From Acaryochloris marina MBIC11017 (GTDB taxonomy: Bacteria > Cyanobacteriota > Cyanobacteriia > Thermosynechococcales > Thermosynechococcaceae), in assembly GCF_000018105.1 (NCBI RefSeq), contig NC_009925.1, forward strand, positions 690,001-722,000: a stretch of DNA of 32,000 nucleotides. The letters are read 5' to 3'. Positions 8,919-26,003 of this stretch are shown here, in pieces. The notes under the pieces were generated by a model, which did not search any database, was not told the origin of the DNA, and was given only the letters and a program-made list of their open reading frames with translations. The position numbers and the translations under genes were made by a program. How positions within the stretch are numbered: position 1 is the first letter of the stretch; each line of letters begins with the position of its first letter.

Positions 8919-11268
8919 ACCTATGTTTACCTCCGGGGGAACGGTCCAAGCTGGAGATGGCATTTATCTAGAACGCAAGGCGGATCAAGAATTACTGGCT
9001 CTCTGTCAGGCAGGGAACTTTGTTTATATCCTTACCCCTCGACAGATGGGGAAATCGAGCTTAATGGTGCGAACGGCTCAAACCTTAGCCAGTCAGGGCA
9101 TTCAATCGGTAATTATTGACTTGACCCAGATTGGCACAGAGTTGGCGGCGGAGCAGTGGTATCTGGGATTCCTAACGCTGATCGAAGAACAGCTAGATCT
9201 AGAGACGGATGTAGAGGCGTGGTGGGAGTCGAAAGCAAAGTTAGGGGTGACCCAACGACTCACGCAGTTTTTTCAAACGGTTCTGCTCAAGGAGATAGAC
9301 AAACCCGTCGTTCTCTTTGTGGATGAAATTGATACGACATTGGGACTGGAGTTTACGGATGATCTATTTACCGCGATTCGTTTTCTCTACGTCGCTCGGG
9401 CTCACCAACCGGAAATGAAGCGGCTCTCAGTGGTGTTGATTGGGGTGGCGACGCCAGGGGATTTGATTCGAGATGCGAGAAGAACGCCGTTTAATATTGG
9501 CCATCGGGTGGATTTAACGGATTTCACCGTTGAGGAGGCAATGCCCTTAGCGGCTGGATTTGGCCTATCGGAAGAAAAGGCGCAAAGACTGTTGGGCAAG
9601 GTGTTGGCTTGGACGGGGGGGCATCCCTATCTGACTCAGCGACTTTGTGAGTCTTTGGTGAATGAGTGGTCTGGCTCCTTAGGGGAAGCTGATGTAGATA
9701 GAGCCGTGGGCCAAACTTTTTTGGGGGAGCGAAGCGAACAGGAGAATAACCTGCAGTTTGTCCGGGATATGCTGACCAAACGGGCCCCTGAGCCAAAGAA
9801 GTTGGTGTTAGAAACCTATCGGCAAATCCATCGGGACAAGGTGGCGGTCGCAGATGAGGAGCAATCTTTAGTTAAGTCTCATCTTAAGCTGGCAGGTGTG
9901 GTGCAGTTGGAAGGGCACCACCTGAAGGTTCGGAATCCGGTTTACCGAGAAGTCTTTGATTCCCAATGGATTCAGGACCATTGGCCCGAGACGCGTTGGC
10001 AGCGGTTAAAGCCAGCATTACCCTATATAGCTGGTTTATCCGCTGTTTTATTTGGCGTTACGGGATTGGCTGTTTATGCCATTGATCAAAGTGATAAAGC
10101 CTTAAAGGCTGAAGCAATAGCTGAGCAGAAGGCTAAAGAAACTGAAGTTGCTCTTGAACAATCTCGCAAAAATGAAACAGCTGCAGAAGCTGCCGCCCGT
10201 GAGGCGCAAAGACAAAAGAAACTGGCGCAAACATCGGCATCCCTGGCAAGGCGACGGTTGCAGCAAGTGAATACTGCCCGCAAGAGGGAAGTCCTAGAAA
10301 GGGAAAAGGCTCAAAAAGCCCAGAAGCTGGCAGAACGCCGACAGAGGGAAGCGGAAGCCCAGAAAAGCATTGCGATTGAGCAAAGAGCAGTTGCAGAACA
10401 GCAAAGAATTGCTGCTGAACAGGCAACGGCAAGAGAAAAAGAACAAACCATAGTTGCACGAAAGGCTACGCAACGCGCAGAAACGCAAGCCAAGTTAGCT
10501 ACTTTGAAAGAACAGGCCGCTTCAGGTTTGTATTGGCTTTCTGCGACGAATCCTACTTTTGGTTTTGTATTAGCCATTGACACAATGAATCAGAGTCAAT
10601 CTATTTCTGATGTTGAGGTAGTTGCCCAATCGGTTCTCCTTAAATCGATCCAACGGGTACAAGAAATAAAGCTGCTGCAAGGCCACCAGGCTGCTGTCTT
10701 GTCGGTGTCCTATAGCCCGGATGGAACGCGCATCGTCAGTGGGAGTTTGGACAATACCGTGCGCATTTGGGATGCCAAGACCGGGCAACCCATCGGAGAG
10801 CCCCTCCAAGGCCACCAGAATACTGTCTGGTCGGTGTCCTATAGCCCGGATGGAAGGCGCATCGTCAGTGGGAGTAGTGACAATACCGTGCGCATTTGGG
10901 ATGCCAAGACCGGGCAAGCGATCGGAGAGCCCCTCCAAGGCCACCAGAATGATGTCTATTCGGTGTCCTTTAGCCCGGATGGAACGCGCATTGTCAGTGG
11001 GAGTAGGGACAAGACCGTGCGCATTTGGGAAGTTGGCCCTGAGTCTTTAACTCGATTAGCTTGTGATCGGTTCAGGTTGCATCCCTTACTTCATCAGCCT
11101 GAGAAAGTTACTTCAGATCCATCTATTATTGAGGCAGCCATCCGTTCCAAGGCGGTTTGCAAACAACATTTCCCTGCTTGGGATTCCTACCGAGCATCCC
11201 AACCCGGATTCCCTAAATGGCTATTCAGTCGTTTCCAACAACTTTTGGCCGATTGGCTCAACACTTAA
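8911..11268 (+). CDS. AAA-like (AAA_35-type) ATPase / single TM helix / long coiled coil / WD40 repeats
   Basis: Walker A is TPRQMGKSS (Lys codon 9052..9054) and Walker B is VLFVDEID. A hydrophobic helix ALPYIAGLSAVLFGVTGLAVYAI maps to 10015..10083. An A/E/K/Q/R-rich segment of about 140 aa maps to 10090..10521. Three GH...WD units start at 10681. The ATG at 8911 overlaps the upstream stop (ATGACTAG); an in-frame ATG at 8884 is the alternative start. Confidence 0.8.
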   Translation: MTRPMFTSGGTVQAGDGIYLERKADQELLALCQAGNFVYILTPRQMGKSSLMVRTAQTLASQGIQSVIIDLTQIGTELAAEQWYLGFLTLIEEQLDLETDVEAWWESKAKLGVTQRLTQFFQTVLLKEIDKPVVLFVDEIDTTLGLEFTDDLFTAIRFLYVARAHQPEMKRLSVVLIGVATPGDLIRDARRTPFNIGHRVDLTDFTVEEAMPLAAGFGLSEEKAQRLLGKVLAWTGGHPYLTQRLCESLVNEWSGSLGEADVDRAVGQTFLGERSEQENNLQFVRDMLTKRAPEPKKLVLETYRQIHRDKVAVADEEQSLVKSHLKLAGVVQLEGHHLKVRNPVYREVFDSQWIQDHWPETRWQRLKPALPYIAGLSAVLFGVTGLAVYAIDQSDKALKAEAIAEQKAKETEVALEQSRKNETAAEAAAREAQRQKKLAQTSASLARRRLQQVNTARKREVLEREKAQKAQKLAERRQREAEAQKSIAIEQRAVAEQQRIAAEQATAREKEQTIVARKATQRAETQAKLATLKEQAASGLYWLSATNPTFGFVLAIDTMNQSQSISDVEVVAQSVLLKSIQRVQEIKLLQGHQAAVLSVSYSPDGTRIVSGSLDNTVRIWDAKTGQPIGEPLQGHQNTVWSVSYSPDGRRIVSGSSDNTVRIWDAKTGQAIGEPLQGHQNDVYSVSFSPDGTRIVSGSRDKTVRIWEVGPESLTRLACDRFRLHPLLHQPEKVTSDPSIIEAAIRSKAVCKQHFPAWDSYRASQPGFPKWLFSRFQQLLADWLNT
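10681..11029 (+). repeat. Tandem 129-bp (43-codon) WD40 repeat units, 2.7 copies, about 92% identical at DNA level
   Basis: Units start at 10681, 10810 and 10939. Units 1 and 2 differ at 10 nt, confined to 6 codons. Confidence 0.9.
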
Positions 11269-12060: not shown

Positions 12061-13074
12061 TTACTTGGAAGTAACCTTAGAGCGCTCTGGAGTAACGGGA
12101 ATAGGCACCGCAGAATTCAACTTAGGTGAGAAGCGAACACTCAATTTTTGGATAAACATCCACACCGGCAATCCAAACAGTTGGTAAGCATGAAACATCG
12201 TGGCAATTACGACGCTTTGTGCCAAAGGAACCCCCATACCATTCAGAGAAAACGCCAAGGCCGCTTCATAGGTGCCCAAGTTTGCCATCGTGGTTGGCAC
12301 CGTCAGCCCCAAATTCAGAATAAATAGACAAATTAAAAGCTGCGGTAAAGACAGAACATGGCCTTGAGCCATACACAATAGCTGTAGCAGCAGACATTCC
12401 GTAAACCAATCCCCCAAATCCATGACCGCAGCATTGCGAATTTGGAGAGGATTACGAATCACCGCCAGTCCGACCTTAAACTTACGAAGCCACTGCCGTA
12501 GCTTTGGGAACCGTTGGCGCAAACTTCGTTGAAGTGCCCACAGGGCTATCCCCAGAAAAGGAACGCCGATCAGAACAATAATGCCTTTCTCCCACCAATC
12601 AACCTGGGGTAGACCAACAGAAACTTGTAAGGCCGATAGCACTGCCAAAGTGACCAAGATGCCCACATCCAGCACCTTATCCACTAAAATAACCGCCGTG
12701 GCTTCAGCCGCATCAATCTTGCGGCCCTTCGCATCTTTATCCTTGCGCAACAGGGCAATTTTGACGGCATGTCCAGCTTGGCTCAGCACGAAATTGCCAA
12801 TAAACTGTCCCGACACGTAGGTATTCGCTGCTTGTGCCCAACTCACCCCAGCCGCTTGGGGACAAAGCACCCATAAACGAGTTACCTGAAACACCATTTG
12901 CACCAAGGTAACCCCTAGCATTAGCACAAGCGCTTCGGGACTAAACCGCTGAAAGGCTTCTAGCAAATCACGGCCTTGGAGATTGATTTTTTGAAAGAGA
13001 AAAGTGAGTCCGAGTCCAACGCAAAACAGCATTAAGAGACGGACAAACGTTTTCTTATGCCAAAACTTATTCAT
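12061..13074 (-). CDS. Flippase-like / lysyl-PG-synthase TM-region family (UPF0104) integral membrane protein
   Basis: The product is polytopic and ends with TVPTTMANLGTYEAALAFSLNGMGVPLAQS, which resembles the P-x-x-P-G-G-x-G-x-x-E region of this family. The ATG at 13074 (MNKFWHKK) is preferred over the TTG at 13209. Confidence 0.55.
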   Translation of the reverse strand: MNKFWHKKTFVRLLMLFCVGLGLTFLFQKINLQGRDLLEAFQRFSPEALVLMLGVTLVQMVFQVTRLWVLCPQAAGVSWAQAANTYVSGQFIGNFVLSQAGHAVKIALLRKDKDAKGRKIDAAEATAVILVDKVLDVGILVTLAVLSALQVSVGLPQVDWWEKGIIVLIGVPFLGIALWALQRSLRQRFPKLRQWLRKFKVGLAVIRNPLQIRNAAVMDLGDWFTECLLLQLLCMAQGHVLSLPQLLICLFILNLGLTVPTTMANLGTYEAALAFSLNGMGVPLAQSVVIATMFHAYQLFGLPVWMFIQKLSVRFSPKLNSAVPIPVTPERSKVTSK

Positions 13075-13853
13075 GGATTTGCAGCAAGATGAGACTTGGC
13101 ATGAGCGGTTGAATGGGGGAATAACAACTTTGATATCTGCATGATTCGTCTCCTTCTCCACTGTTGGGTCTAATGCTCTACCTAGAGATGCTGATCGCCA
13201 ATTCTCCAATCATTCGTTTTAATTTGGGAAAAAGTTATCTGCATCATCTCTCTATACAAACGCGTGGTTTTGAGTAGAATCATCCTGTGACCTGGACAAT
13301 CAAAGCTTAGATCAACCAATATAAATGGATTGTTTTTTCAGATCTGAACTTGTCCCCCTTGAATCCAGGGAAGTCATTATTTCTAAGGGTTGACTTCTCC
13401 AAGATGAACAGACTTTTAGAGGCTTAATCCCCCTTGTATTTTGTAGCCATTATCCCTTTTTAGGGAGCGTTTGTCTTGGCAGCAAGTTCTGAGAAGTACG
13501 ATGCAACAGCCTCAAAACTTAGGAATTCCCTGCCTGGGACTTAAGCCAAAAACGCATCCTCACTCATCATTAACTATCGCTAGTATGGACAGGGAAAATG
13601 TGATTTCTGAGTCGCATATGCAACAAAATTGACCGTCACAGTTGATCGTCAAATCCATCTTTTAGAAGGAACTAGAGAGGCAATGGCCCGTCCAGGGAAG
13701 AGCCATTTACTGCCATCTGTACGCCAGAATACTTGAAGTCTAAAGCATCCCTAAACTACAGTAATGTGATGCAGATCCGCCTTCATTGTGATGCAAGTAC
13801 TAGCGGGTTTAGATGCTCAAATTTAGGATTTTGCTACTGCAGATTTTGACCCT

Positions 13854-15647
13854 ATGACCCAACCCTCAACTCTAGTCGACTTACTGCGAGAGCGGTCTCA
13901 GCTCCAGTCTGATTTAACGGCCTATACCTTTTTGGCCGACGGCAAAAACGAATCCGGGACTCTCACCTACGCCACCTTGGATTTGCAAGCTCGGGCAATT
14001 GCAGCCGCAATACAGGCCCTAACCGCCCGAGGCACAAACGTTCTGGTCGTTTATCCCTACGATGCCGGACTCGAATTTGTATCCGCATTTTTTGGCTGTC
14101 TCTATGCCGGGGTGGTAGCGGTTACTGATAATCCCCCCCGGAAACCTGAAGCCATTGCCAAGCTCCAAATTCGGGCGAAAGCCTCGGAAGCCACGGTGTT
14201 GGTTTCCACTGCAGGATTTTTGGAGCATCTGAAAAACCAGATGAAAAAGAATCCCGATTTAGCCCCGTATTTGAATCAATTGACCTGGCTGGCAACGGAT
14301 ACTGTACCCACGGATCAAGCCTCTACCTGGACCCAGCCGGAGTTAGAAACCGATACTCTAGCCTTCCTCCAATACACCTCGGGTTCCACTGGAGATCCGA
14401 AAGGGGTGATGGTTACCCACGGCAATATGCTCCATAACTCCAAGATGATTTATGAGAGCTTTGGCCATTCCGACCAGAGTCAGGGGGTGATTTGGCTGCC
14501 TCTGTTTCACGATATGGGGTTAGTGGGGGGTGTCCTCCAGCCTTTATATGGTGGCTTTCCGGTGACCTTGATGTCGCCGATTGCCCTGATCCAAAAACCG
14601 ATTTTGTGGTTAGAAGCCGTATCTAAATATGGGGCAACCACCAGCGGTGGACCCAACTTTGCCTACGATTTACTCTGCCAGAAGGTGAAGCCGAAGCAGC
14701 GAGACCAGCTAGATCTAAGTAAATGGGAAGTGGCCTTTTCCGGGGCAGAACCGATCAAAGCTGATACCCTCGATAAGTTTGTGGACTTCTTTGGTCCCTG
14801 TGGCTTCCGGCGAGAAGCTTTTTACCCCTGCTATGGTATGGCTGAAACGACCCTCTTTATTTCTGGGGGCCTGAAGTCAGAATCACCCATCGTTCGCTAT
14901 CTCGACAGTACGGCCCTGGCTGACAACAAGGTGGTTCCTGTGGAACCAGAATCTGACAAAGCCCAGGCCATTATCGGCTGTGGCCGCATGTGGTTAGGGG
15001 ATAAGGTTGCGATCGCAAATCCCGATACCCTGACAAAATGTGCGGAAAACCAAGTCGGTGAGATTTGGGTTGCCGGGGATGGCGTCGGCAAAGGGTACTG
15101 GAACAGACCCGACGTCACCGCCGAGGCCTTTCAGGCCCACTTAGCCGATACGGGCGAAGGACCCTTCCTGCGAACCGGAGATTTAGGCTTTGTCCAGGAT
15201 GGCGAAGTTTATATCACGGGCCGGATTAAAGATTTGATGATTATCTGGGGCCGAAACCAATATCCCCAGCTCATTGAACAGACCGTGGAGCAATGCCATC
15301 CCGCTCTCCGGCCTAATCATGGTGCCGCTTTTTCCATTCCCCTCAATGGTGAAGAGCATTTGGTGATTGTCCATGAGGTGGAACGAAACTTTTTCCGACG
15401 CCTCCCCGTCGAAGAGGTTATCGGAGCGATTCGTTTAGCCATTGCCGAGGACCATATGGCTGAAGTCTATGCCGTATTGCTCCTCAAGCCAGGTGCAATT
15501 CCCAAAACCTCTAGTGGCAAAATTCAACGCCGGGCTTGTCGGACTAAATTTTTAGAAAGCAGCTTTCAACCTGTTGCCGAGTGGAAACAAGAAACCCAAG
15601 GCAATATCTCCGATTTGATGGCGCCTATGGCTGCGAATCAACCGTAA
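13854..15647 (+). CDS. Fatty acyl-AMP ligase (FAAL, FadD32-like adenylating enzyme), copy 1
   Basis: The N-terminus is LVDLLRERS...TYATLDLQARAIAAA...GLEFVSAFFGCLYAGVVAV. Further motifs are LAFLQYTSGSTGDPKGVMVTHGN, GGPNFAYDL, YGMAETTL and IPKTSSGKIQR. Confidence 0.85.
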   Translation: MTQPSTLVDLLRERSQLQSDLTAYTFLADGKNESGTLTYATLDLQARAIAAAIQALTARGTNVLVVYPYDAGLEFVSAFFGCLYAGVVAVTDNPPRKPEAIAKLQIRAKASEATVLVSTAGFLEHLKNQMKKNPDLAPYLNQLTWLATDTVPTDQASTWTQPELETDTLAFLQYTSGSTGDPKGVMVTHGNMLHNSKMIYESFGHSDQSQGVIWLPLFHDMGLVGGVLQPLYGGFPVTLMSPIALIQKPILWLEAVSKYGATTSGGPNFAYDLLCQKVKPKQRDQLDLSKWEVAFSGAEPIKADTLDKFVDFFGPCGFRREAFYPCYGMAETTLFISGGLKSESPIVRYLDSTALADNKVVPVEPESDKAQAIIGCGRMWLGDKVAIANPDTLTKCAENQVGEIWVAGDGVGKGYWNRPDVTAEAFQAHLADTGEGPFLRTGDLGFVQDGEVYITGRIKDLMIIWGRNQYPQLIEQTVEQCHPALRPNHGAAFSIPLNGEEHLVIVHEVERNFFRRLPVEEVIGAIRLAIAEDHMAEVYAVLLLKPGAIPKTSSGKIQRRACRTKFLESSFQPVAEWKQETQGNISDLMAPMAANQP

Positions 15648-15720
15648 TTTAAAGTTCCCCGAATATTGTCCTCCTTGGTGCAAGCCAAGGACCGATTGTC
15701 TACCCCAAAACTCCAGTGCT

Positions 15721-16494
15721 ATGAATGTTCTCAGTCAACCGGATGGAAATTGGCAGGCCAAAATTCGCCAACGCTTTCTCAAGGCAGCCGAGCAGCTCCT
15801 GCGGCGATTCGAAGGTCTGATCGAGTCCCACTCCCTCGTGGGCAATACGCCGTTTATCGAGGCTCAATCGTTCCCCTGGGTCAAGCAGCTAGAGCATAAC
15901 TGGCCCACCATTGCTCAAGAATTAGATGACATTCTTCAGTATCAGGATGAGCTGCCCAATTTCCAAGATTTATCGCCGGATCAGTATCGTCTCACCCAAG
16001 ACGATCGCTGGAAAACCTTTTTCTTCTATGCCTTTGGCGTCAAAGCGGCCCAAAACTGCGCCCGCTGTCCTCAAACCAGCCAGCTGATTGAATCGATTCC
16101 GGGGATGAAAACGGCCTTTTTCTCGATTCTGTTGCCCCAGAAACATATTCCCGAGCATTGCGGGGTCTTTAAAGGGGTCGTCCGGTACCATCTGGCTCTG
16201 AAAGTGCCTCAACCGGAGACCCAATGTCGTCTCCGGGTGGCGGACCAAATTCGCCATTGGCAACAGGGACAAGGGTTAATCTTTGATGATCGATTTCCCC
16301 ATGAGGTTTGGAACGATAGCGACGAGGTGCGGGTCGTCCTGATTATTGATGTGGTCCGTCCTCTTCAGTTCCCCGTCTCCCTCCTCAATCAGACCCTGAT
16401 TCGCCTGATTTCCTGGTCGCCCTTTGTCCAGGATGCTAAAAAGCTGCAAAACCAGTGGGAAAAGCGCTTAGGTGCCATTATGAAATCCCACTAA
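15721..16494 (+). CDS. Aspartyl/asparaginyl beta-hydroxylase family (AspH/LpxO-like Fe(II)/2OG oxygenase), paralog 1
   Basis: It reads CPQTSQLIESIPGMKTAFFSILLPQKHIPEHCG...VRYHLALKVP...IFDDRFPHEVWNDSDEVRVVLIIDVVRP. I recall human ASPH as HTGPTN...FDDSFEHEVW, which this resembles. Confidence 0.75.
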   Translation: MNVLSQPDGNWQAKIRQRFLKAAEQLLRRFEGLIESHSLVGNTPFIEAQSFPWVKQLEHNWPTIAQELDDILQYQDELPNFQDLSPDQYRLTQDDRWKTFFFYAFGVKAAQNCARCPQTSQLIESIPGMKTAFFSILLPQKHIPEHCGVFKGVVRYHLALKVPQPETQCRLRVADQIRHWQQGQGLIFDDRFPHEVWNDSDEVRVVLIIDVVRPLQFPVSLLNQTLIRLISWSPFVQDAKKLQNQWEKRLGAIMKSH

Positions 16495-16557
16495 TCCAAT
16501 TCTGGTGTCTGGCTCAGGCATCAAGATTAAGGATTTATTAATATAGTCAACACATGA

Positions 16558-17304
16558 TTGGAAGATAGTCCCGTGAAAGAATTTCTCGAAACTTTAATGC
16601 GTCAGCATATTGGGGGTTTGGTTTCGCGTTCGTCCCTCGTGGGCCACCAAACCTTCTTTGACCCCAGTATCTTTAACTGGATTCCGCTTTTGGAAAAAAA
16701 CTGGCGCACCATTCGCCAGGAACTAGAACAGGTTCTCCAATATAAAGAGGCATTGCCCAATTTTGAAGAATTGGTGGAGTACGATGCCGACCTCACCAAA
16801 GATACCCAGTGGAAAATGTTCGCCTTCTACGCCTATGGGATTAAGGCCGAAAAAAATTGTGATCGCTGCCCGGAAACCACCCGGCTGATCGAACAAATCC
16901 CCGGGTTAAAAACCGCTTTTTTCTCGATCTTGCTGCCTCACCAGCGCATCCCCCCCCACCGAGGCCCTTATAACGGAGTGCTGCGTTATCACCTCGGCCT
17001 GATGGTCCCAGAGGCCACGGACCAATGCGGCATCCGCGTTGGCAAGGATATTCGCCATTGGCAAGAAGGCCAAAGCCTCGTCTTTGATGATTCCTTCGAA
17101 CATACGGCCTGGAACGACACGGATAGTGTCCGCGTCGTCCTGTTTTTGGATGTGGTCCGACCCGTCAAATTTCCTATTTCTCTGTTGAATCAAGCCGTGA
17201 TTCAGCTCTTTTCTTTGTCCCCCTATATTCAAGGCGCAGCCGCCAATCAAAAGAAGTGGGACAAGCGATTGGATGCCGTATTGGCAGCGAAAGGGACCCA
17301 ATAG
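16558..17304 (+). CDS. Aspartyl/asparaginyl beta-hydroxylase family oxygenase, paralog 2
   Basis: It reads CPETTRLIEQIPGLKTAFFSILLPHQRIPPHRGPYNGVLRYHLGLMVP...VFDDSFEHTAWNDTDSVRVVLFLDVVRP. The start is uncertain: TTG 16558, GTG 16573 or ATG 16597. Confidence 0.75.
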   Translation: MEDSPVKEFLETLMRQHIGGLVSRSSLVGHQTFFDPSIFNWIPLLEKNWRTIRQELEQVLQYKEALPNFEELVEYDADLTKDTQWKMFAFYAYGIKAEKNCDRCPETTRLIEQIPGLKTAFFSILLPHQRIPPHRGPYNGVLRYHLGLMVPEATDQCGIRVGKDIRHWQEGQSLVFDDSFEHTAWNDTDSVRVVLFLDVVRPVKFPISLLNQAVIQLFSLSPYIQGAAANQKKWDKRLDAVLAAKGTQ

Positions 17305-17377
17305 CGCCGTGACAGATCATGGTGTACATTGGCTGGAGTGTTAATGCGCCCGATTGTTGATTTCTAAGCCCTAACTT

Positions 17378-18160
17378 ATGAGTGCATTGAGCCAGTTTTA
17401 CACCGATTTCAAAACCAAAAACCGTGAGGTTGCCCTCAAAGCAGGGGAAGGCTTGTTGCGTCAGTTGGAGCGCATCATTCGAACCTCTTCCCTAGTGGGC
17501 AACTCAACCTTCTTCGATCCTGATCAGTTTGAATGGGTCAAAACCTTCGAAGATAACTGGCAGGTGATTCGGAAGGAACTCGATGAGATTCTCAAATATA
17601 GAGACGACCTGCCGAATTTCCAAGATATTTCCCCGGATCAGTACAACATAACCAATGATCAGCGCTGGAAAACCTTTTTCTTCTATGCCTATGGGGTGAC
17701 GGCAGAGCAAAACTGCCGCCTCTGCCCGGAAACGGCCAAGCTGTTGTCCAGTATCCCCGGGGTTAAAACGGCTTTTTTCTCGATTTTGCTGCCCCAAAAG
17801 CAAATCCCGCCCCACCGAGGTCCCTTTAATGGCGTGTTGCGCTACCATTTGGGCTTGATCATCCCTGAGGCTGCCTCAGACTGTGGGATTCGGGTGGGAG
17901 ACGATGTCCGCCATTGGCAAGAAGGCAAAAGCCTCGTGTTCGATGACTCCTTCGAGCATGAAGCCTGGAATAATACCGATGAAGTTCGGGTGGTCCTCTT
18001 TGTCGATATTGTCCGTCCCCTCAAATTCCCTGCGTCCCTGCTGAATCAATTTATTATTCAGCTGATTGCCTGGTCTCCCTATATCAAGGATGCCGAAACC
18101 AATCAAAAGAAATGGGACCAGCGGTTACAAGGGCTGTTCAAATCGAAAACGAATTCATAA
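17378..18160 (+). CDS. Aspartyl/asparaginyl beta-hydroxylase family oxygenase, paralog 3
   Basis: It reads CPETAKLLSSIPGVKTAFFSILLPQKQIPPHRGPFNGVLRYHLGLIIP...VFDDSFEHEAWNNTDEVRVVLFVDIVRP. Confidence 0.75.
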   Translation: MSALSQFYTDFKTKNREVALKAGEGLLRQLERIIRTSSLVGNSTFFDPDQFEWVKTFEDNWQVIRKELDEILKYRDDLPNFQDISPDQYNITNDQRWKTFFFYAYGVTAEQNCRLCPETAKLLSSIPGVKTAFFSILLPQKQIPPHRGPFNGVLRYHLGLIIPEAASDCGIRVGDDVRHWQEGKSLVFDDSFEHEAWNNTDEVRVVLFVDIVRPLKFPASLLNQFIIQLIAWSPYIKDAETNQKKWDQRLQGLFKSKTNS

Positions 18161-18173
18161 TCCTGTAGTCAGG

Positions 18174-20054
18174 ATGGAGTATAACGTGGCTGAAACAACC
18201 AATTGGGACGCCAAGGTCGAAGGAACCTGTCCGCCAAAGGTAGACAGTTTGGTGGATCTGCTCCGCTATCGAGCGACTCACCAGCCAGACCATAAAGGCT
18301 TTACCTTTCTCGTCGATGGTGAAGACGAAACCCTCCATCTCACCTATGCAGAGCTGGATGCCAAAGCCCGTGCGATCGCAGCTGCGTTACAGTCGGCCTG
18401 TCAACCGGGTGATCGAGCCCTATTGGTTTATCAGCCTGGATTAGAATATGTGGCCGCTTTCTTTGGCTGCCTCTATGCGGGCGTCACGGCAGTCCCCATT
18501 TATCCACCCCGTCCGAATCGCTCCCTGATGCGATTGCAGAGTGTGATCGCGGACTCCCAAGCCATTTTTGCCCTGACCACCTCTCAAATTCTGTCGAAGC
18601 TAGAACGACAGTTGATTGATGCCCCAGAGTTAAGGGCCCTAAAGTGGTTGGCCACTGATAGTCTTAGCGTCACCGAACCTCGTCAAGCTTGGCAAGAGAT
18701 TCATCCCCAAGGTCAAGATTTAGCCTTTCTTCAATACACCTCTGGCTCAACCGCAACGCCCAAAGGGGTGATGATTACCCATCACAATCTGTTGCAGAAC
18801 CTGGCGCTGATTCATCAATGCTTTGAGCATAGTTCTCAGTGCCAAGGCGTGATTTGGCTACCGCCCTACCACGATATGGGCTTGATCGGCGGGATTTTGC
18901 AGCCTTTATACGGCGGGTTCCCCGTGGCCCTGATGTCTCCCTTTATGTTTTTACAGAGTCCCATTCGCTGGCTGCAAGCCATTTCTCGCTATCGGGCGAC
19001 CACCAGTGGGGGACCAAATTTTGCCTACGATTTATGTTTGCGCAAGATCAAGCCAGAACAGATTGAAACCCTAGATCTAAGCTCCTGGCGGGTGGCCTTT
19101 AATGGCGCAGAACCCATCAGTGCTCAAACCCTCGAAGACTTTGCCACCAAGTTTGCATCCTGTGGATTTCGGCCTGAAGCCTTTTTCCCCTGTTATGGCC
19201 TTGCCGAAGCCACCCTGATCGTTTCTGGGGGACAGAGACAGGCTAAACCTGCGCTTAAAACGGTCCAAGGGGCAGCCTTAGAACAACATCAAGTCGTCTC
19301 TGCTCACTTAGGAGATACAGATGCTCGCACCTTAGTGGGCTGCGGTACTGCTCTCCAAGGCCAAGAAATTGTGATCGCCAATCCTGAAACCCTCCAACAA
19401 TGTTCAGCCGAAGAAGTCGGCGAAATTTGGGTGTCTGGCCAAAGCATTGCCCAGGGATACTGGCGGCAATCGGAAGTATCTGGGGAAACCTTTCAGGCCC
19501 ATTTGGCCGATACCGGAGCTGGCCCCTTTTTACGCACCGGAGACTATGGCTTTTTGGTGGGTTCCGAGCTGTTTGTGACCGGACGCCTAAAGGACGTGAT
19601 TATCATCAATGGCCGCAATCATTATCCCCAGGACATTGAGTTGACCGTCGTCCAAAGCTATCCGGGGATTCGACCCAATTGTGCTGCAGCGTTTTCGATT
19701 ACGGAAGCCGGGGAAGAACGGCTAGTCGTAGTGGCGGAATTGGAGCGGAACTATATCAATCGCTATCAAAAAAATGGCAAGAAGCCCTCTTCCCAACCGC
19801 CTCAGCTCAATAATTTTGTCCCCCCCACCAGCCTGACTGAGGAATCAGAACCCGCTGCCGTCGAAAAAGATATTCTCACTCAAATCCGTCGAGCCGTTGC
19901 CAAAGACCATGACCTGCAGATTCATGCCCTGCTGCTGCTCAAACCCGGCAGTATTCCCAAGACCTCTAGTGGTAAAATCCAGCGGTTTACCTGTAGAGCC
20001 AAGTTTCTAGAGGGAGACCTAGAGAGCGTGGCCAAGAGTGTGCCCCGCGCCTAA
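18174..20054 (+). CDS. Fatty acyl-AMP ligase (FAAL), copy 2
   Basis: It reads LVDLLRYRATHQPDHKGFTFL...LTYAELDAKARAIAAAL...GLEYVAAFFGCLYAGVTAVPIYPPRPNRS, then LAFLQYTSGSTATPKGVMITHHN and IPKTSSGKIQR. The ATG at 18174 (MEYNV) avoids overlap with the upstream hydroxylase; the track start at 18066 is rejected. Confidence 0.85.
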   Translation: MEYNVAETTNWDAKVEGTCPPKVDSLVDLLRYRATHQPDHKGFTFLVDGEDETLHLTYAELDAKARAIAAALQSACQPGDRALLVYQPGLEYVAAFFGCLYAGVTAVPIYPPRPNRSLMRLQSVIADSQAIFALTTSQILSKLERQLIDAPELRALKWLATDSLSVTEPRQAWQEIHPQGQDLAFLQYTSGSTATPKGVMITHHNLLQNLALIHQCFEHSSQCQGVIWLPPYHDMGLIGGILQPLYGGFPVALMSPFMFLQSPIRWLQAISRYRATTSGGPNFAYDLCLRKIKPEQIETLDLSSWRVAFNGAEPISAQTLEDFATKFASCGFRPEAFFPCYGLAEATLIVSGGQRQAKPALKTVQGAALEQHQVVSAHLGDTDARTLVGCGTALQGQEIVIANPETLQQCSAEEVGEIWVSGQSIAQGYWRQSEVSGETFQAHLADTGAGPFLRTGDYGFLVGSELFVTGRLKDVIIINGRNHYPQDIELTVVQSYPGIRPNCAAAFSITEAGEERLVVVAELERNYINRYQKNGKKPSSQPPQLNNFVPPTSLTEESEPAAVEKDILTQIRRAVAKDHDLQIHALLLLKPGSIPKTSSGKIQRFTCRAKFLEGDLESVAKSVPRA

Positions 20055-20418: not shown

Positions 20419-20874
20419 ATGCCAATCCAGGATAACTATCAAAGCACGGTCGCTGTGGCGGAAGCACAGCCTCAGGGCGCTGTTTCGCCCTTGGAGACTT
20501 CCCCTAAACTAGCAGATATTCAAGCCTGGTTAAAAAAACACTTGGCAACTTCTTTGGAAATGAGTCCAGAGGAAATTGATATCGATGTGGATTTCATTGA
20601 TTACGGAATGAACTCCGTAGAAGTCGTCAATATTTCCGGTGAACTAGAACATTTTCTGGGTCGCCGTTTGGATCCCATGCTGGTTTTAGATTATTCCAAT
20701 ATTCGTGAATTATCAGAGCACCTAGTAACCGATAATGAAGGCAGTTCTCCCACTACTTCAGCATTACCCACAGAAGCCGATGAACTCCTATCCAAATTGG
20801 ATGTACTGAGTGACGATGAAGTGGATGGTCTGCTGAACGCGATGTTGTCAGAGCATAATGTTGCCCATGAGTAA
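20419..20874 (+). CDS. Stand-alone acyl/peptidyl carrier protein (PP-binding) with N- and C-terminal extensions
   Basis: The sequence DVDFIDYGMNSVEVVNISGELEHFLGRRL fits the DxxFxxxGxDS carrier motif, with the candidate phosphopantetheine Ser66 at 20614..20616. The protein is 151 aa with an acidic tail, and the gene overlaps the next gene by 17 nt. Confidence 0.7.
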   Translation: MPIQDNYQSTVAVAEAQPQGAVSPLETSPKLADIQAWLKKHLATSLEMSPEEIDIDVDFIDYGMNSVEVVNISGELEHFLGRRLDPMLVLDYSNIRELSEHLVTDNEGSSPTTSALPTEADELLSKLDVLSDDEVDGLLNAMLSEHNVAHE

Positions 20875-22192
20875 TTCCTCTAATTCCCTGGATCATCTCT
20901 CCGCAGAAGAAAAGCGCGAATTGCTGGCGGAATTATTGCAGAAAAAAGCCGACGCTGAACCTGAGATTCCTCCCGAGCACTATCGCTTCGATCTCTACCC
21001 TGAATATCTCCAGCTCAAAGAGCAACAAGCCCAACTGCAGGCGAATGATATCCGCAACCCTTATTTCTCCGTCCATGAAGGGATTGCCCGAGATACCACC
21101 CGCATTGATGGAAAAGAGCTGATCAACTTCTCCAGCTACAACTATTTAGGGCTAGCCGGACATCCGACGGTTTCTGAAACAGCTAAACAAGCCATTGACC
21201 GCTACGGCACTTCGGTGTCAGCCAGCCGCCCCGTTTCTGGTGAGAAACCCTTACATTTAGAGCTTGAGCAAGGAATTGCAGACTTTATTGGTGTAGATGA
21301 CGCCGTTCTTTACGTCGCGGGTCACGGTACCAACGTCACAACCATTGGGCATTTATTTGGCCGTAATGACCTGATTCTTTACGATGCCTATAGTCACAAC
21401 AGTATTTTTCTTGGCTGTGTACTGTCGGGCGCTCGGGCCATGTCGTTTGCCCATAATGATGTAGCCGATCTAGAAAGACTTTTAAAGCAGCATCGTCATC
21501 GCTATCAGCGAGTTCTGGTAGTGATTGAAGGGGTCTACAGTGCCGATGGCGACATTCCTGAATTACCTAAATTTATTGAACTCAAAGAACGCCACAAAGC
21601 TTTTCTGATGGTGGATGAAGCCCACTCGATTGGTGTTTTGGGCGAACATGGTCAGGGTATTAGCGAGCATTTTGGCATTGACCCCAAAACGGTCGATATT
21701 TGGATGGGCACCCTTAGTAAGTCCTTTGCCAGCTGTGGCGGATATATTGCCGGTTCTCAGCCCCTGATTGAATATCTCAAATGTACGGCACCGGGATTTA
21801 TCTATAGTATTGGCATTACCCCTGCCAATACGGCGGCCTCTTTGGCGGCGCTACAAGTTTTGAAACAAGAACCTGAACGCGTAGCTAGGCTCCATGCTCG
21901 GGCTCAGTTGTTCCTCGACTTGGCTAAAGAAAAAGGATTGAATACTGGTACCAGTCACGGTTCAGCGGTGATTCCGGTGATGGTGGGGGAGACCCTTAAA
22001 GCCCTGCACTTGTCGCAGCAGCTATTTCACCAAGGGATTAATGTTCAGCCCATGACCTTCCCGGTGGTGCCCCAAAACGAGGCTCGACTTCGCTTTTTCC
22101 TCAGCAGCACCCATACGGAAGCGCAAATTCGCCAAACCGTAGAGACCCTCGCTGCTGCCCTAGCTCATATTGAGACTGAAATCCCTGCCTAA
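20858..22192 (+). CDS. PLP-dependent alpha-oxoamine synthase (serine palmitoyltransferase / BioF / KBL family)
   Basis: It has NFSSYNYLGLAGHP, MVDEAHSIGVLGEHGQG and GTLSKSF, with the PLP lysine codon at 21719..21721. The N-terminal extension reads NPYFSVHEG...IDGKELI. Confidence 0.85.
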   Translation: MLPMSNSSNSLDHLSAEEKRELLAELLQKKADAEPEIPPEHYRFDLYPEYLQLKEQQAQLQANDIRNPYFSVHEGIARDTTRIDGKELINFSSYNYLGLAGHPTVSETAKQAIDRYGTSVSASRPVSGEKPLHLELEQGIADFIGVDDAVLYVAGHGTNVTTIGHLFGRNDLILYDAYSHNSIFLGCVLSGARAMSFAHNDVADLERLLKQHRHRYQRVLVVIEGVYSADGDIPELPKFIELKERHKAFLMVDEAHSIGVLGEHGQGISEHFGIDPKTVDIWMGTLSKSFASCGGYIAGSQPLIEYLKCTAPGFIYSIGITPANTAASLAALQVLKQEPERVARLHARAQLFLDLAKEKGLNTGTSHGSAVIPVMVGETLKALHLSQQLFHQGINVQPMTFPVVPQNEARLRFFLSSTHTEAQIRQTVETLAAALAHIETEIPA

Positions 22193-22206: not shown

Positions 22207-22878
22207 ATGGCTGAAGTAGTGTGGATTGCGCGGCATGGCCATCGGCAAGATTATGCTGACTTAGGCTGGCGAAAACGGGCAGAACGTCCCCATGACCCAG
22301 GTCTTTCGGCTGCAGGAGTAGTGGAGGCTCAAGATCTGGCTCAGTGTCTTAAGTCAGAATCCATTGAGCATATCGTTGCCTCCCCTTTTTTACGAACTGT
22401 TGTAACAGCCGCTCATACAGCAACGGCGCTAGCTTTGCCGATCCAGCTTGAAGCCGGTCTAGGGGAACATATGAGCTCCAAGCTGTTTAAGCATCGTCCA
22501 GAACCACTGCCTGTCGATGAAATGGCCGATCGATTCCCTCAAGTTGATCGACTCTACCAGAGCCAAATTATTCCTCCTTTTCCAGAAACAGAAGAAGAAG
22601 CGCTCGCTCGAGCCGGAAAAGCACTGCAGCAATTATTGGACACCTTTTCAGGGCCGCTGCTGATTGTTACCCATGAGTTGATTGGCAAAGGAGCGGTTTG
22701 GGGGCTGGTCAATCAACGCCCTCCCGTTCGCTTTCCCACCTGTAGCTTAACCAAACTGGTCCATGAGCAGGGAGAATGGAAGATGGCTTTTACGGGCAAA
22801 ACTTCCCATCTCAGCCAGCCCCGCCACCCGATTCCAGAGATCTGGAATTATCTATTACGGCAAATTGTTCATCGCTAA
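22207..22878 (+). CDS. Histidine phosphatase superfamily (phosphoglycerate-mutase-like) protein
   Basis: It has the N-terminal RHG motif (VVWIARHGHRQDY) and a distal LLIVTHE histidine. Confidence 0.7.
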   Translation: MAEVVWIARHGHRQDYADLGWRKRAERPHDPGLSAAGVVEAQDLAQCLKSESIEHIVASPFLRTVVTAAHTATALALPIQLEAGLGEHMSSKLFKHRPEPLPVDEMADRFPQVDRLYQSQIIPPFPETEEEALARAGKALQQLLDTFSGPLLIVTHELIGKGAVWGLVNQRPPVRFPTCSLTKLVHEQGEWKMAFTGKTSHLSQPRHPIPEIWNYLLRQIVHR

Positions 22879-22932: not shown

Positions 22933-23754
22933 ATGGACTTTAATCAGCGCCATATCATGATTACGGGTGGATCGAGTGGCATTGGTAAAGCCACTGCCTG
23001 CCTCCTTGCCAATCAGGGGGCCAATCTCTCCTTGATTGCTCGCACACCGAGTCAATTAGACATCGCAGTCCAGGAGATTACAGCGGCTCAGGTCCAGTCA
23101 GACCAGCAGGCTTTAGCATTCGCAGCAGATGTAGCTGACCGAGAAGCCTCAACTCAAGCCATCCAAACCGCAACGGCTCAACTGGGACCGCCCGATATTT
23201 TAATTACCGCTGCAGGGATAGCTCGTCCAGGCTATTTTCAAGAAATACCGCTAGAGGTTTTTGAGCAAACGATGGCGGTCAACTACTTTGGTACCTTGTA
23301 TGCGATCAAAGCGGTTTTGCCCCTTATGGAGGAACGTCAGCGGGGGCATATTGTGTTGATTTCGTCAGGGGCAGGACTGGTAGGACTCTTTGGTTATACC
23401 CCCTATAGCCCTAGTAAGTTTGCACTGCGGGGGTTGGCCGAATCTTTACGGGGAGAACTGAAAGGGATTGGAATTGGTTTATCGATTGTTTATCCCCCCG
23501 ATACCGATACACCTCAACTGGAAGCAGAGAATAAAACCAAGCCTCCAGAAACAAAAAATATCACCGCCTCGGCGGAGATGTGGCAACCGGAAGCTGTGGC
23601 CCAAGAGATTGTCAAAGGGATTAAACACCAAAAGTTTGTGGTGGCGCCTGGTTTAGAAATGGGGCTATTGGCTAAGCTGCACAGTGTTTTAGCCCCAGGG
23701 CTGAACTGGTATTTTGATCGGATTGTTACGAAGACGAGATCGCAATCCTCTTAA
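22933..23754 (+). CDS. Short-chain dehydrogenase, 3-ketodihydrosphingosine reductase (KDSR/FVT1)-like
   Basis: It reads [11 protein letters not shown]...[15 protein letters not shown]...[24 protein letters not shown]. I recall human KDSR as [10 protein letters not shown]...YSASKFAIRGLAEAL...[24 protein letters not shown], and the two track along the whole length. Confidence 0.75.
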   Translation: [273 protein letters not shown]

Positions 23755-25034
23755 TGGACGTTTCTAACCCCAAAGACCTGAACCTGAATCGCTTGCAGGA
23801 GTGCGATCGCAGTTTTCATGATTGGTATCGCTTTATCTTGTCCTTTCCGCCCCATTTAGTTCGCACCTATATCAATAAGTTTGGTCTGACCGAAAAAAGC
23901 ACGCTACTAGATCCCTTTTGTGGCACCGGGACAACGATTGTAGAGGCCAAAAAGCAGGGCATTCCTGCCGTTGGCACCGAAGCAACCCCCATGTCCTGGT
24001 TTGCCTCCCGGACCAAAACCACCTGGACCGTTGACCCGGATCAGGTGCGAAGGGCTGCAGAACGGATTTGCGATCGCCTGGCCACCGATATTACACCTAA
24101 AAATACAACCCACCTAAAAAAGCTGGCACCAGACGCGCGATCTCTCCTGCTTACAAACTCCATTGGCGATCTGCCCCTCCATAAATGTTTGGTCCTGCGA
24201 GAGGCTATCGATGCCGAATCCAATCTGCCACTGCGACATCTTCTTCAGCTCGCCCTCGCCCATACCAGCGTCCACACTGCTAGCAACCTCCGATTTGCCC
24301 CAGAAGTGGGTATTAGCCGCCAGCGAAAACAGGATGCCCCTGTCTTGACGGCTTGGCATCAGCAGGTTTTGGCGATGGCAGCGGACTTAGCAACCATTGA
24401 TCGCCCCCCTGGAACAATTTGTTATCACCAAGATGCCCGGGATTTAACCCGAATTCTGCAGCCAGAATCCATTGACGCGGTGATTACCTCTCCCCCCTAT
24501 CCGAATGAAAAAGACTATACCCGCACTACCCGACTAGAATCGGTGCTGCTTGGTTTTCTCAAGGACCCATCCGACTTGAAAGCTTATAAGCAATCACTGC
24601 TCCGCTCCAACACCCGCAATGCCTTTGCAGCGGATCAGGATGATTTATGGGTAGCAAACACACCGCAAATCACCCAGCTTGCTGCCACTATCGAACGCCG
24701 CCGGCTAGAATTGGGCAAAGATTCTGGGTTTGAGAAGTTATATCATAGGGTCACCTCCCTCTACTTTGGGGGCATGAAACGCCATTTTGCGAATTTGCGC
24801 CCCATCCTCAAACCGGGAGCCCAACTAGCCTATGTTGTTGGCGATCAAGCCTCTTTCCTTCAGGTTTTAATTCGAACCGGAGATCTATTGGCGGCCATTG
24901 CTGAAGAACTTGGCTATATAGTCCGGGACGTAGAGCTGTTTCGAACTCGCTTATCCAGTGTCACGGGCGAACAATTACGGGAAGAAGTCGTTTGGCTGGA
25001 ATGGCCAGGGTATAAGCGATTGTCCTCCCCCTAA
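23754..25034 (+). CDS. SAM-dependent amino-methyltransferase fold protein (N6/N4 DNA-methylase-like)
   Basis: Motif I is LLDPFCGTGTTIVEA near the N-terminus, and motif IV is AVITSPPYPNEKDY about 190 residues later. The start overlaps the SDR stop (TAATG at 23752..23756). Confidence 0.65.
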   Translation: MDVSNPKDLNLNRLQECDRSFHDWYRFILSFPPHLVRTYINKFGLTEKSTLLDPFCGTGTTIVEAKKQGIPAVGTEATPMSWFASRTKTTWTVDPDQVRRAAERICDRLATDITPKNTTHLKKLAPDARSLLLTNSIGDLPLHKCLVLREAIDAESNLPLRHLLQLALAHTSVHTASNLRFAPEVGISRQRKQDAPVLTAWHQQVLAMAADLATIDRPPGTICYHQDARDLTRILQPESIDAVITSPPYPNEKDYTRTTRLESVLLGFLKDPSDLKAYKQSLLRSNTRNAFAADQDDLWVANTPQITQLAATIERRRLELGKDSGFEKLYHRVTSLYFGGMKRHFANLRPILKPGAQLAYVVGDQASFLQVLIRTGDLLAAIAEELGYIVRDVELFRTRLSSVTGEQLREEVVWLEWPGYKRLSSP

Positions 25035-25040
25035 GCACAG

Positions 25041-26003
25041 ATGGACAGCGAAATGATAGCAACAACATCAACCCCGCCCGATCAGGGGTCACAAGAACAG
25101 TGGGCCTTGACCCTATCGATTATGGGATCCGCCGTCTTTGCCGTTTTGGGTGGGGTGTTTGGACTCTATACCCATTCTGGCGCTATCTTGCTGGACGGGT
25201 TTTATTCCCTGATGACCATGACCATGAGCTTTGTCAGTCTCAAGGTGGCAGCCCTAATCCAGGAAGGTCCCAGTCGGCGTTACCAGTTTGGCTATTACGG
25301 TTTTGAGCCTTTTATTAACACGATTAAAGGCATCATTGTTCTATCGGTTAGTTTGTTCGCTTTCGTTTCTGCGATAGAAGACTTACTGCATGGCGGTCGA
25401 GATCTTGTCGTGGGCCTAGCCTTGGCTTACGCGACCCTATCAACAGTCGGGTGTTTTACCTTCGCCATCTTGATGCATCGCTATGCTCAACGGTTGAACT
25501 TACCGTTGCTGGAGGTGGAAGCCCGGGACTGGACAGTAGATGGCTGTATCAGTAGCGCGGTAGCGTTGACCTTTGTAGTGACTTTGTTGCTGCAAGAAAC
25601 CTCCTGGAATATTTATCTCTCTTACGTTGACCCGCTGCTGGTTTCCATATTGGTGCTGATTATTATTCCGCTGCCCTTACGTACCGTATTTGAAGGCGTG
25701 AATCAGTTATTAGGGGTTGCTCCAGAAAGTGAGTTGGATCGAGAGATTCGCAAGACCATTTCCCAAGTTGCCCGCATTCAAAAACACCCCATCGATCGCT
25801 TTCATTTGCAGATGATGGTGCAAGGACGGGTGTTGTATGTGTTTATTCAGATCTTGGTCCCTGCTGAGTTTGGGGTGGATCGGGTGCAAGAACTAGACCA
25901 ACTGAGGCAGAAGTTTGCGGATGCGATCGCAGATTTACATCCATTTCCAGAAATCGATATTGTATTTACGGAAGATCCCTATTGGCTTAAAGATGGCCAA
26001 TAG
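25041..26003 (+). CDS. Cation diffusion facilitator (CDF) family transporter
   Basis: The product has six hydrophobic segments, reads SGAILLDGFYSL...RYQFGYYGFEP, and has a C-terminal cytoplasmic-domain-like region. It starts 6 nt after the MTase stop. Confidence 0.7.
   Translation: MDSEMIATTSTPPDQGSQEQWALTLSIMGSAVFAVLGGVFGLYTHSGAILLDGFYSLMTMTMSFVSLKVAALIQEGPSRRYQFGYYGFEPFINTIKGIIVLSVSLFAFVSAIEDLLHGGRDLVVGLALAYATLSTVGCFTFAILMHRYAQRLNLPLLEVEARDWTVDGCISSAVALTFVVTLLLQETSWNIYLSYVDPLLVSILVLIIIPLPLRTVFEGVNQLLGVAPESELDREIRKTISQVARIQKHPIDRFHLQMMVQGRVLYVFIQILVPAEFGVDRVQELDQLRQKFADAIADLHPFPEIDIVFTEDPYWLKDGQ

Follow-up and report, generated by a model that had tools for sequence, protein, structure and literature searches.

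The window analyzed here is a 32,000-nucleotide (nt) stretch of Acaryochloris marina MBIC11017 (contig NC_009925.1, positions 690,001 to 722,000, forward strand). It encodes a short-chain dehydrogenase/reductase (SDR) that is likely a soluble or peripheral, probably NADPH-dependent enzyme of the 3-ketodihydrosphingosine reductase (KDSR) type, acting in the second step of a cyanobacterial long-chain-base pathway. By sequence, the SDR is a member of the KDSR family with intact motifs, and its gene is linked to and co-occurs with that of an alpha-oxoamine synthase (AOS). Together, the SDR and the adjoining genes are good candidates for the genes behind the sphingolipid-like lipids of cyanobacteria. 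They offer a concrete gene set for cyanobacterial long-chain bases, in which one type of AOS is tied to a KDSR-like reductase across many families.

Relationship of the SDR to eukaryotic KDSR

The best sequence match to the SDR in PDB was the fungal TSC10 3-ketodihydrosphingosine reductase 8jat (E value of 1.6e-31, 113 bits, residues 5 to 238 aligned). The alignment takes in a C-terminal block, and the next single-domain SDR in PDB scored 87.6 bits. A HMMER search of 1.8 billion cluster representatives retrieved 926 relatives at E ≤ 1e-30. Many relatives of 317 to 346 amino acids were eukaryotic KDSRs, which matched with E values of 1e-59 to 1e-73. Cluster look-ups identified the 3-ketodihydrosphingosine reductase of Acanthamoeba castellanii, a 3-dehydrosphinganine reductase of Trichoplax, and a KDSR-like protein of Orbicella, along with EukProt relatives from a MAST stramenopile, Diphylleia, and Gloeochaete. 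Identity to the named eukaryotic KDSRs was 39 to 49% over 230 to 290 residues by BLASTP: 49% over 231 amino acids for Acanthamoeba (E value of 3e-69), 46% for MAST, 42% for Trichoplax, and 39% over 289 amino acids for Orbicella.

The match was reciprocal. When three eukaryotic KDSRs were searched against the 8.36-Mb genome, the open reading frame (ORF) of the SDR ranked first with 201 to 216 bits, and the next paralogue scored 128 to 131 bits. The SDR is single-copy in the genome. There were 21 tblastn matches overall, and identity to the next SDR is 30%. The closest proteins come from Acaryochloris sp. (96% identity) and A. marina NIES-2412 (90% identity). The gene and the motifs of its product are as follows. 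Conservation refers to alignment A1, which contains 32 cyanobacterial, other bacterial, and eukaryotic rows.

22933 to 23754, + strand: KDSR-type SDR, 273 amino acids (protein P0001); identified by ORF, Pfam, PDB match, and reciprocal best match
22963 to 22986, + strand: TGGSSGIG dinucleotide-binding motif, residues 11 to 18; G12, G13, S14, G16, I17, and G18 nearly invariant in A1
23041 to 23043, + strand: Arg37, right after beta-strand 2 (strand E31-36 in the model); A36 and R37 in at least 90% of the A1 rows
23365 to 23418, + strand: catalytic Ser145 and the YSPSK block (Tyr158, Lys162); S145, Y158, and K162 invariant in A1
23491 to 23556, + strand: KDSR-clade signature after beta-strand 6, residues 187 to 208, (Y/F)PPDT(D/E)TP ... 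E(N) .. KP. ET

The ORF is intact. An earlier note on this DNA had claimed, from two segments of the protein, that the likeness to KDSR goes beyond generic SDR motifs; those segments are exactly residues 158 to 172 and 186 to 208 of the translation. The claim holds. The closest named enzymes are KDSR/TSC10 rather than generic SDRs, and the likeness is not confined to the cofactor motifs. It includes the C-terminal signature, in which P188, P189, D190, T191, T193, P194, E199, and T207 show conservation of at least 90% in A1, over its cyanobacterial, other bacterial, and eukaryotic rows. This block also occurs in the coral and stramenopile KDSRs. It is not found in the three SDR paralogues from the same genome that served as the outgroup, nor in most of the more distant clades.

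The SDR is otherwise a classical SDR. Pfam gave adh_short (3e-49), with adh_short_C2, KR, and SDR also listed. The Asn-Ser-Tyr-Lys catalytic set (N117, S145, Y158, and K162) is conserved in A1. In the established classification of SDRs, a basic residue after beta-strand 2 is the classical sign of NADP(H) preference; Arg37 takes this position. Epimerase (PF01370) had no Pfam match at E ≤ 0.001, so the protein is not an extended SDR of the CerR type. NCBIfam gave generic SDR models only, all below cut-off. The AlphaFold2 model has a Rossmann fold (pLDDT of 97.4). In a Foldseek search against PDB, 17beta-HSD13 and generic SDRs ranked first, and KDSR was not separable from other SDRs.

No transmembrane segment was found in the SDR. 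Its highest Kyte-Doolittle mean over 19 residues was 1.37 (<1.6), whereas eukaryotic KDSRs reach 2.1 to 2.95 at the N-terminus. Transmembrane anchoring (N-terminal, and in animals also C-terminal) is a trait of the eukaryotic form of KDSR and not of the catalytic family. The window SDR thus shares with eukaryotic KDSR/FVT1 and TSC10 (EC 1.1.1.102) the catalytic and cofactor motifs and the C-terminal block, in addition to the 39 to 49% identity and the reciprocal best match. It lacks both their N-terminal transmembrane helix and their C-terminal hydrophobic insert of about 22 residues. The eukaryotic enzymes also receive their substrate from a membrane-bound, acyl-CoA-using serine palmitoyltransferase (SPT) complex, whereas the presumed donor of the window SDR is an AOS dependent on an acyl carrier protein (ACP).

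Two trees placed the SDR in a bacterial clade beside eukaryotic KDSR. The FastTree phylogeny contained 160 rows and was rooted on the three SDR paralogues from the same genome. It had an 86-row clade (support of 97) that united a eukaryotic clade (33 rows, support of 100) with a bacterial group (52 rows), and the window SDR was inside a 19-row cyanobacterial clade (support of 94) of that group. The IQ-TREE phylogeny contained 72 rows under LG+C20+F+G4. The eukaryotes again formed one clade (99), which was joined (84) to a 39-row bacterial clade (95) that contained the cyanobacteria (94). The nearest neighbors of the cyanobacteria were Roseobacter, Micropepsaceae, and other alphaproteobacterial sequences (87). 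Members from Verrucomicrobiota, Chloroflexota, and Burkholderiaceae were further out in the bacterial clade.

The window SDR was outside the eukaryotic clade, and away from other SDRs, in both trees. The reciprocal best matches, the shared C-terminal signature, and this position adjoining the eukaryotic clade support an enzyme of the eukaryotic KDSR/TSC10 type and not a generic SDR. The SDR tracks the eukaryotic enzyme because it is a member of a bacterial clade placed beside eukaryotic KDSR. The "eukaryote-like" KDSR step has, in this broad clade, a bacterial counterpart that bears on the origin of the eukaryotic sphingolipid pathway. The earlier note had called for a phylogeny to look for a horizontal origin. 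A recent transfer from a eukaryote to a cyanobacterium was rejected, since the window SDR falls in the broad bacterial clade and the eukaryotes form a separate clade of their own in both trees (support of 99 to 100).

A PKS-AOS-linked SDR (PKS, polyketide synthase) was observed in Shimia sediminis (Roseobacteraceae; L099:8001-8795). It is 60% identical to the window SDR. Its nearest database relatives are cyanobacterial, apart from a few sequences of the roseobacter group. These relatives suggest transfer of the SDR between cyanobacteria and marine alphaproteobacteria.

Linkage and co-occurrence with the AOS

The window AOS is encoded two genes upstream of the SDR. The earlier note had proposed that a KDSR-type SDR is coupled here to an ACP-dependent AOS, and both the gene order at related loci and the distribution of the two genes bear this out. 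We searched for orthologues in 301 sampled cyanobacterial genomes. At E ≤ 1e-60, SDR orthologues (56 to 67% identity) were present in 17 genomes from at least nine families. At E ≤ 1e-120, orthologues of the window AOS (45 to 64% identity) were present in 20 genomes; the ubiquitous BioF-like copy was well apart at about 1e-70. A specialized AOS was present in 16 of the 17 SDR carriers. In 13 of these it was a clear orthologue, and in three (G131, G174, and G192) it was a diverged fused form adjoining the SDR. Only 7 of the 284 SDR-negative genomes had a specialized AOS. Fisher's test (16/1 versus 7/277) gave p = 3e-20, an overstated value given the non-independence of related genomes; many families show the pattern.

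The two genes are not always neighbors. In several genomes the AOS and SDR are unlinked, lying on separate contigs or, in G274, 2 Mb from each other. In four genomes (G017, G158, G014, and G202), the AOS forms the C-terminal part of a PKS-AOS protein of 2,465 to 2,746 amino acids. The AOS of G017 (C1:2533676-2534905) is about 21 kb from the SDR.

We also compared the gene neighborhoods of 16 other orthologue loci from the sampled genomes and of a second set of 80 named loci, with fetched flanks of 8 to 10 kb. An AOS was present within the flanks at 6 of the 16 and 22 of the 80 loci. The six loci (L019, L021, L025, L026, L027, and L029) encode a fusion of a fatty acyl-AMP ligase (FAAL), an ACP, and an AOS, 1,078 to 1,098 amino acids long, directly upstream of the SDR (e.g., L026:6708-9956). 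Near these fusions are a second FAAL, orthologous to FAAL1 of the window, as well as glycosyltransferases and a flippase-like gene. Among the 22 AOS-linked loci of the second set, 13 have a FAAL and 8 have a PKS. Close relatives of the window SDR at loci with PKS and AOS were found in L099 (Shimia), L103, L107, L064, L075, and L092.

The AOS has four architectures at these loci. It is encoded by a separate gene in the window, as a 577-amino-acid ACP-AOS fusion in Moorena (e.g., L045:3373-5106), as the FAAL-ACP-AOS fusion of 1,078 to 1,098 amino acids, and as the C-terminal domain of the PKS. Moorena bouillonii and a second Moorena metagenome-assembled genome encode a divergent FAAL, the ACP-AOS fusion, a B12-radical-SAM gene, and the SDR. 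In M. bouillonii the fusion is 2.9 kb upstream of the SDR. The cluster of Scytonema tolypothrichoides (L038:966-8831) contains genes for a FAAL, a fatty-acid desaturase, an ACP, a CMAS-type C-methyltransferase, an AOS, a Rieske oxygenase, and the SDR. Tailoring enzymes of these types modify sphingoid bases in fungi and plants. Other SDR carriers were Chlorogloeopsis fritschii PCC 6912, a Microcystis strain (PKS-AOS-SDR), S. sediminis, and a Verrucomicrobiota genome. AOS-SDR adjacency is kept across many cyanobacterial families, alphaproteobacteria, and Verrucomicrobiota. This conserved synteny and the genome-level co-occurrence support a role for the SDR together with a carrier-protein-dependent AOS.

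In the window, the SDR is part of a same-strand block that runs from FAAL1 to a cation-diffusion-facilitator (CDF) transporter. The other genes of the block are as follows.

13854 to 15647, + strand: FAAL1 (Pfam, NCBIfam); start of an upstream block at 13854 to 18160
15721 to 16494, 16558 to 17304, and 17378 to 18160, + strand: three OlsC/LpxO-type hydroxylases (Pfam, NCBIfam)
18066 to 20054, + strand: FAAL2 (Pfam AMP-binding, NCBIfam FAAL models)
20419 to 20874, + strand: stand-alone ACP, 151 amino acids (Pfam PP-binding, 2e-14); GMNS serine motif; overlaps the AOS start by 17 nt
20858 to 22192, + strand: AOS, 444 amino acids (Pfam Aminotran_1_2)
22207 to 22878, + strand: histidine phosphatase between AOS and SDR (Pfam His_Phos_1, 2e-20)
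23754 to 25034, + strand: 426-amino-acid protein with a short amino-methyltransferase motif (Pfam N6_N4_Mtase over residues 29 to 77 only)
25041 to 26003, + strand: CDF transporter (Pfam Cation_efflux); end of the same-strand block

FAAL1 orthologues (49 to 63% identity) flank the AOS-SDR pair at many other cyanobacterial loci. The best PDB match of the AOS was the SPT of Sphingobacterium (3a2b/8guh, 5e-71); other solved relatives were a promiscuous BioF/KBL enzyme and human SPTLC2. The AOS is distinct from the BioF-like copy of the genome (C1:2294668), which is 40% identical and is the sole other AOS-family match there. The stop codon of the SDR overlaps the ATG of the next gene (TAATG). Promoter and terminator scans gave background level only.

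An Acaryochloridaceae locus (L034) is collinear with the window, with the gene order hydroxylase-FAAL-ACP-AOS-SDR-CDF. The CDF transporter directly follows the SDR and is 64% identical to that of the window. This region (L034:4033-7203) contains neither the phosphatase nor the 426-amino-acid gene; the AOS-SDR gap is 64 nt and the SDR-CDF gap is 84 nt. No homologue of either gene was found between AOS and SDR at any other AOS-SDR locus, and the 426-amino-acid protein had no homologue in 96 related loci. The two genes appear to be insertions specific to this lineage in a conserved AOS-SDR-CDF operon, and not part of its core.

FAAL2 aligns to residues 11 to 579 of the fused FAAL-ACP-AOS protein of L026. 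A frameshifted fusion gene as the origin of the FAAL, ACP, and AOS genes of the window was rejected. The three genes are in different frames, and stop codons interrupt every frame of the 364-nt spacer. FAAL2 ends where the fused FAAL domain ends, and the ACP shares only 25% identity with the ACP domain of the fusion. Two paralogues of FAAL2, each about 88% identical, are on other contigs (C7:43959-45887 and C3:106314-108242). The genes for the ACP, the phosphatase, the SDR, and the 426-amino-acid protein are each single-copy in this assembly.

Proposed pathway and alternatives

We infer the substrate of the SDR, its cofactor, and the order of the steps. In the proposed pathway, FAAL2 would adenylate a fatty acid and presumably load it onto the dedicated ACP. 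The AOS, the presumed producer of the SDR's substrate, would join the acyl-ACP and an amino acid to give a 2-amino-3-keto long-chain base. The SDR would then reduce the C3 ketone to an alcohol, giving a sphinganine-like amino alcohol. The hydroxylases, the second FAAL, the phosphatase, the methyltransferase-like protein, and the transporter may tailor or export the product. No match to a eukaryote-type ceramide synthase (PF03798) was found in the genome, and the control genomes gave none either.

Several observations weigh against this assignment. The AOS scores below the NCBIfam cut-offs for all three SPT models as well as for bioF, so serine is only a default guess for its amino acid substrate. 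About half of the orthologue loci have no AOS within 8 to 10 kb. In seven cyanobacterial genomes the AOS is present but an SDR orthologue is not (best SDR matches of 1e-27 to 1e-29). Members of the SDR clade also occur in cassettes of another kind, described below. The phosphatase between AOS and SDR hints at a phosphorylated or otherwise non-canonical substrate. No report of a sphingolipid from Acaryochloris was found in the searched literature.

The SDR might instead reduce the 3-keto group at a later stage. Its substrate would then be an N-acylated intermediate, as for Caulobacter CerR, or a phosphorylated or hydroxylated derivative rather than the free base. In most bacteria studied, reduction follows N-acylation (PMC9278070, PMC12134224). 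The second FAAL and the three acyl hydroxylases of the block would fit such a substrate, as would the phosphatase. We consider later reduction unlikely, as the SDR belongs to the KDSR clade, whose characterized eukaryotic members use the free base. It is also not of the epimerase/dehydratase type (no PF01370 match), and the minimal conserved unit elsewhere is AOS and SDR without the phosphatase.

A second alternative is a general reductase of long-chain keto-lipids (envelope or secondary lipids, e.g., polyketide-derived keto-alcohols), for which the AOS link is one of several uses. A cassette of ketosynthase (KS), SRPBCC cyclase, SDR, and a membrane protein of 594 to 637 amino acids lies beside a large PKS at 10 of the 80 loci (L036, L044, L067, L079, L091, L093, L094, L100, L104, and L108) and at L022, L028, and L033. 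The 594-amino-acid membrane protein had no Pfam match. Another 44 of the 80 loci lack all of these partners within the fetched flanks. Both observations would suit a reductase of broad use. It is nevertheless an improbable explanation, because the PKS-type genomes still have an AOS, as the C-terminal part of PKS-AOS proteins, and because 16 of the 17 SDR carriers have a specialized AOS. For the same two reasons, the PKS context appears to represent the same amino-ketone chemistry fed by a PKS, by analogy with PfSgaABC of Pseudomonas (see below).

A housekeeping or unrelated (e.g., FabG-like) reductase that adjoins the AOS by accident is very improbable: the genome has many SDRs (the 21 tblastn matches) that the structure search cannot tell apart, but the next paralogue is only 30% identical, the distribution is patchy (17/301) and follows that of the AOS, the adjacency is conserved across cyanobacterial families, alphaproteobacteria, and Verrucomicrobiota, and the SDR stop codon overlaps the next start.

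Known systems and cyanobacterial sphingolipids

The closest described system is PfSgaABC of Pseudomonas fluorescens MYb115. It consists of an iterative type I PKS, the AOS PfSgaB, which is a demonstrated SPT, and a proposed KDSR-homologous SDR, PfSgaC (KW062_RS19775) (PMC12134224, Nat Commun 2025). The role of PfSgaC was proposed, with the enzyme itself unassayed, as 3-ketodihydrosphinganine reduction before acylation, a "eukaryotic-like" step that is unusual in bacteria (PMC12134224). As in the window, a KDSR-homologous SDR is encoded beside a carrier-protein-dependent AOS. The Pseudomonas chain comes from the iterative type I PKS, whereas that of the window would come from a FAAL and a stand-alone ACP; the two systems are likened by description only. 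A search seeded with the Shimia SDR retrieved roseobacterial and cyanobacterial proteins, with no Pseudomonas or Burkholderia among the best 120. SDR matches at E ≤ 1e-45 were present in 2 of 201 Burkholderiales genomes.

The earlier note had seen a hybrid pathway logic in this pairing. A KDSR-type SDR does stand with an ACP-dependent AOS in the window, but the combination is not unprecedented, since PfSgaABC was proposed in 2025 (PMC12134224). The window is a FAAL/ACP-fed cyanobacterial variant of the logic already proposed for PfSgaABC. Its value is moderate, as the enzyme class and the pathway logic are already known.

BT_0972 of Bacteroides thetaiotaomicron is a demonstrated 3-ketosphinganine reductase that uses the free base (PMC9278070). 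It is reported to share only 16 to 30% identity with Tsc10p/FVT1, to have "no full homologs", and to be encoded apart from SPT (PMC9278070). For other bacterial 3-keto reductases, the identity is 21 to 27% (PMC11211663). Both BT_0972 and the window protein are bacterial SDRs with a 3-ketosphinganine reductase role, demonstrated for the former and predicted for the latter. The window SDR differs in its identity to eukaryotic KDSRs (39 to 49%, compared via the published figures) and in being clustered with an AOS. Because of these identities, it is by sequence much nearer the eukaryotic enzyme than any characterized bacterial one. The earlier note had called it a eukaryote/Bacteroidetes-type KDSR. 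The eukaryote-like part of that description stands, and the Bacteroidetes part does not, given the low identity of BT_0972 to the eukaryotic enzyme.

In the Caulobacter-type ceramide pathway, Spt is fed by a specialized ACP that is loaded by an AMP-forming ligase (PMC9386255). N-acylation by bCerS is followed by reduction by CerR, which is a different class of reductase (PMC9278070, PMC12134224, PMC11334938). The feeding of the AOS by a dedicated ACP and an AMP-forming ligase is alike, as FAAL2, the ACP, and the AOS appear to work in this way. CerR, compared here by description, is a later-acting extended SDR of the epimerase/dehydratase type, whereas the window reductase is of the KDSR type. 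The contrast with alphaproteobacteria drawn in the earlier note is valid as a comparison but not as host background, as the host is a cyanobacterium. KDSR homologues are also encoded with an AOS in fungi. Fumonisin FUM13 and sphingofungin SphF are KDSR homologues in PKS and AOS clusters and reduce the C3 ketone of the amino-ketone (PMC12134224). These differ from the window in being eukaryotic clusters for secondary metabolites, with chains made by a PKS.

According to PMC8895605, cyanobacteria have neither a described sphingolipid enzyme nor a described genetic basis for these lipids. The BioF of Nostoc punctiforme, the sole candidate tested there, does not make 3-ketodihydrosphingosine, and a second AOS of Moorea producens, with 571 amino acids, was named as worth testing (PMC8895605). 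The 577-amino-acid ACP-AOS fusion of M. bouillonii fits the description of this AOS. Moorea/Moorena and Scytonema are the two genera with reported cyanobacterial sphingolipids (PMC8895605), and the SDR carriers include both Moorena and Scytonema. We found no described cyanobacterial FAAL-AOS pathway in the literature, and a 2025 review of FAALs makes no mention of oxoamine synthases or sphingolipids.

A wider reading can be offered tentatively. A minority of cyanobacteria (about 5 to 8% of the sampled species genomes), including Moorena, Scytonema, Chlorogloeopsis, Trichodesmium, and Acaryochloris, may have a genuine, hitherto unrecognized sphingoid-base pathway that runs from FAAL or PKS through ACP and AOS to a eukaryote-type KDSR. 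This pathway may be the basis of the Moorea and Scytonema ceramides, and the bacterial clade may contain the closest prokaryotic kin of eukaryotic KDSR. A. marina may have rewired the pathway via a phosphorylated intermediate and amine methylation, using the inserted histidine phosphatase and methyltransferase-like genes.

Two further observations were made upstream in the window. Immediately upstream of the lipid block and divergent from it, a gene at 12061 to 13209 (- strand) encodes a protein with a transmembrane domain of the lysyl-phosphatidylglycerol-synthase type. An overlapping gene pair at 6735 to 11268 encodes a CHAT-TIR-AAA_35 ATPase and an AAA_35-WD40 protein.

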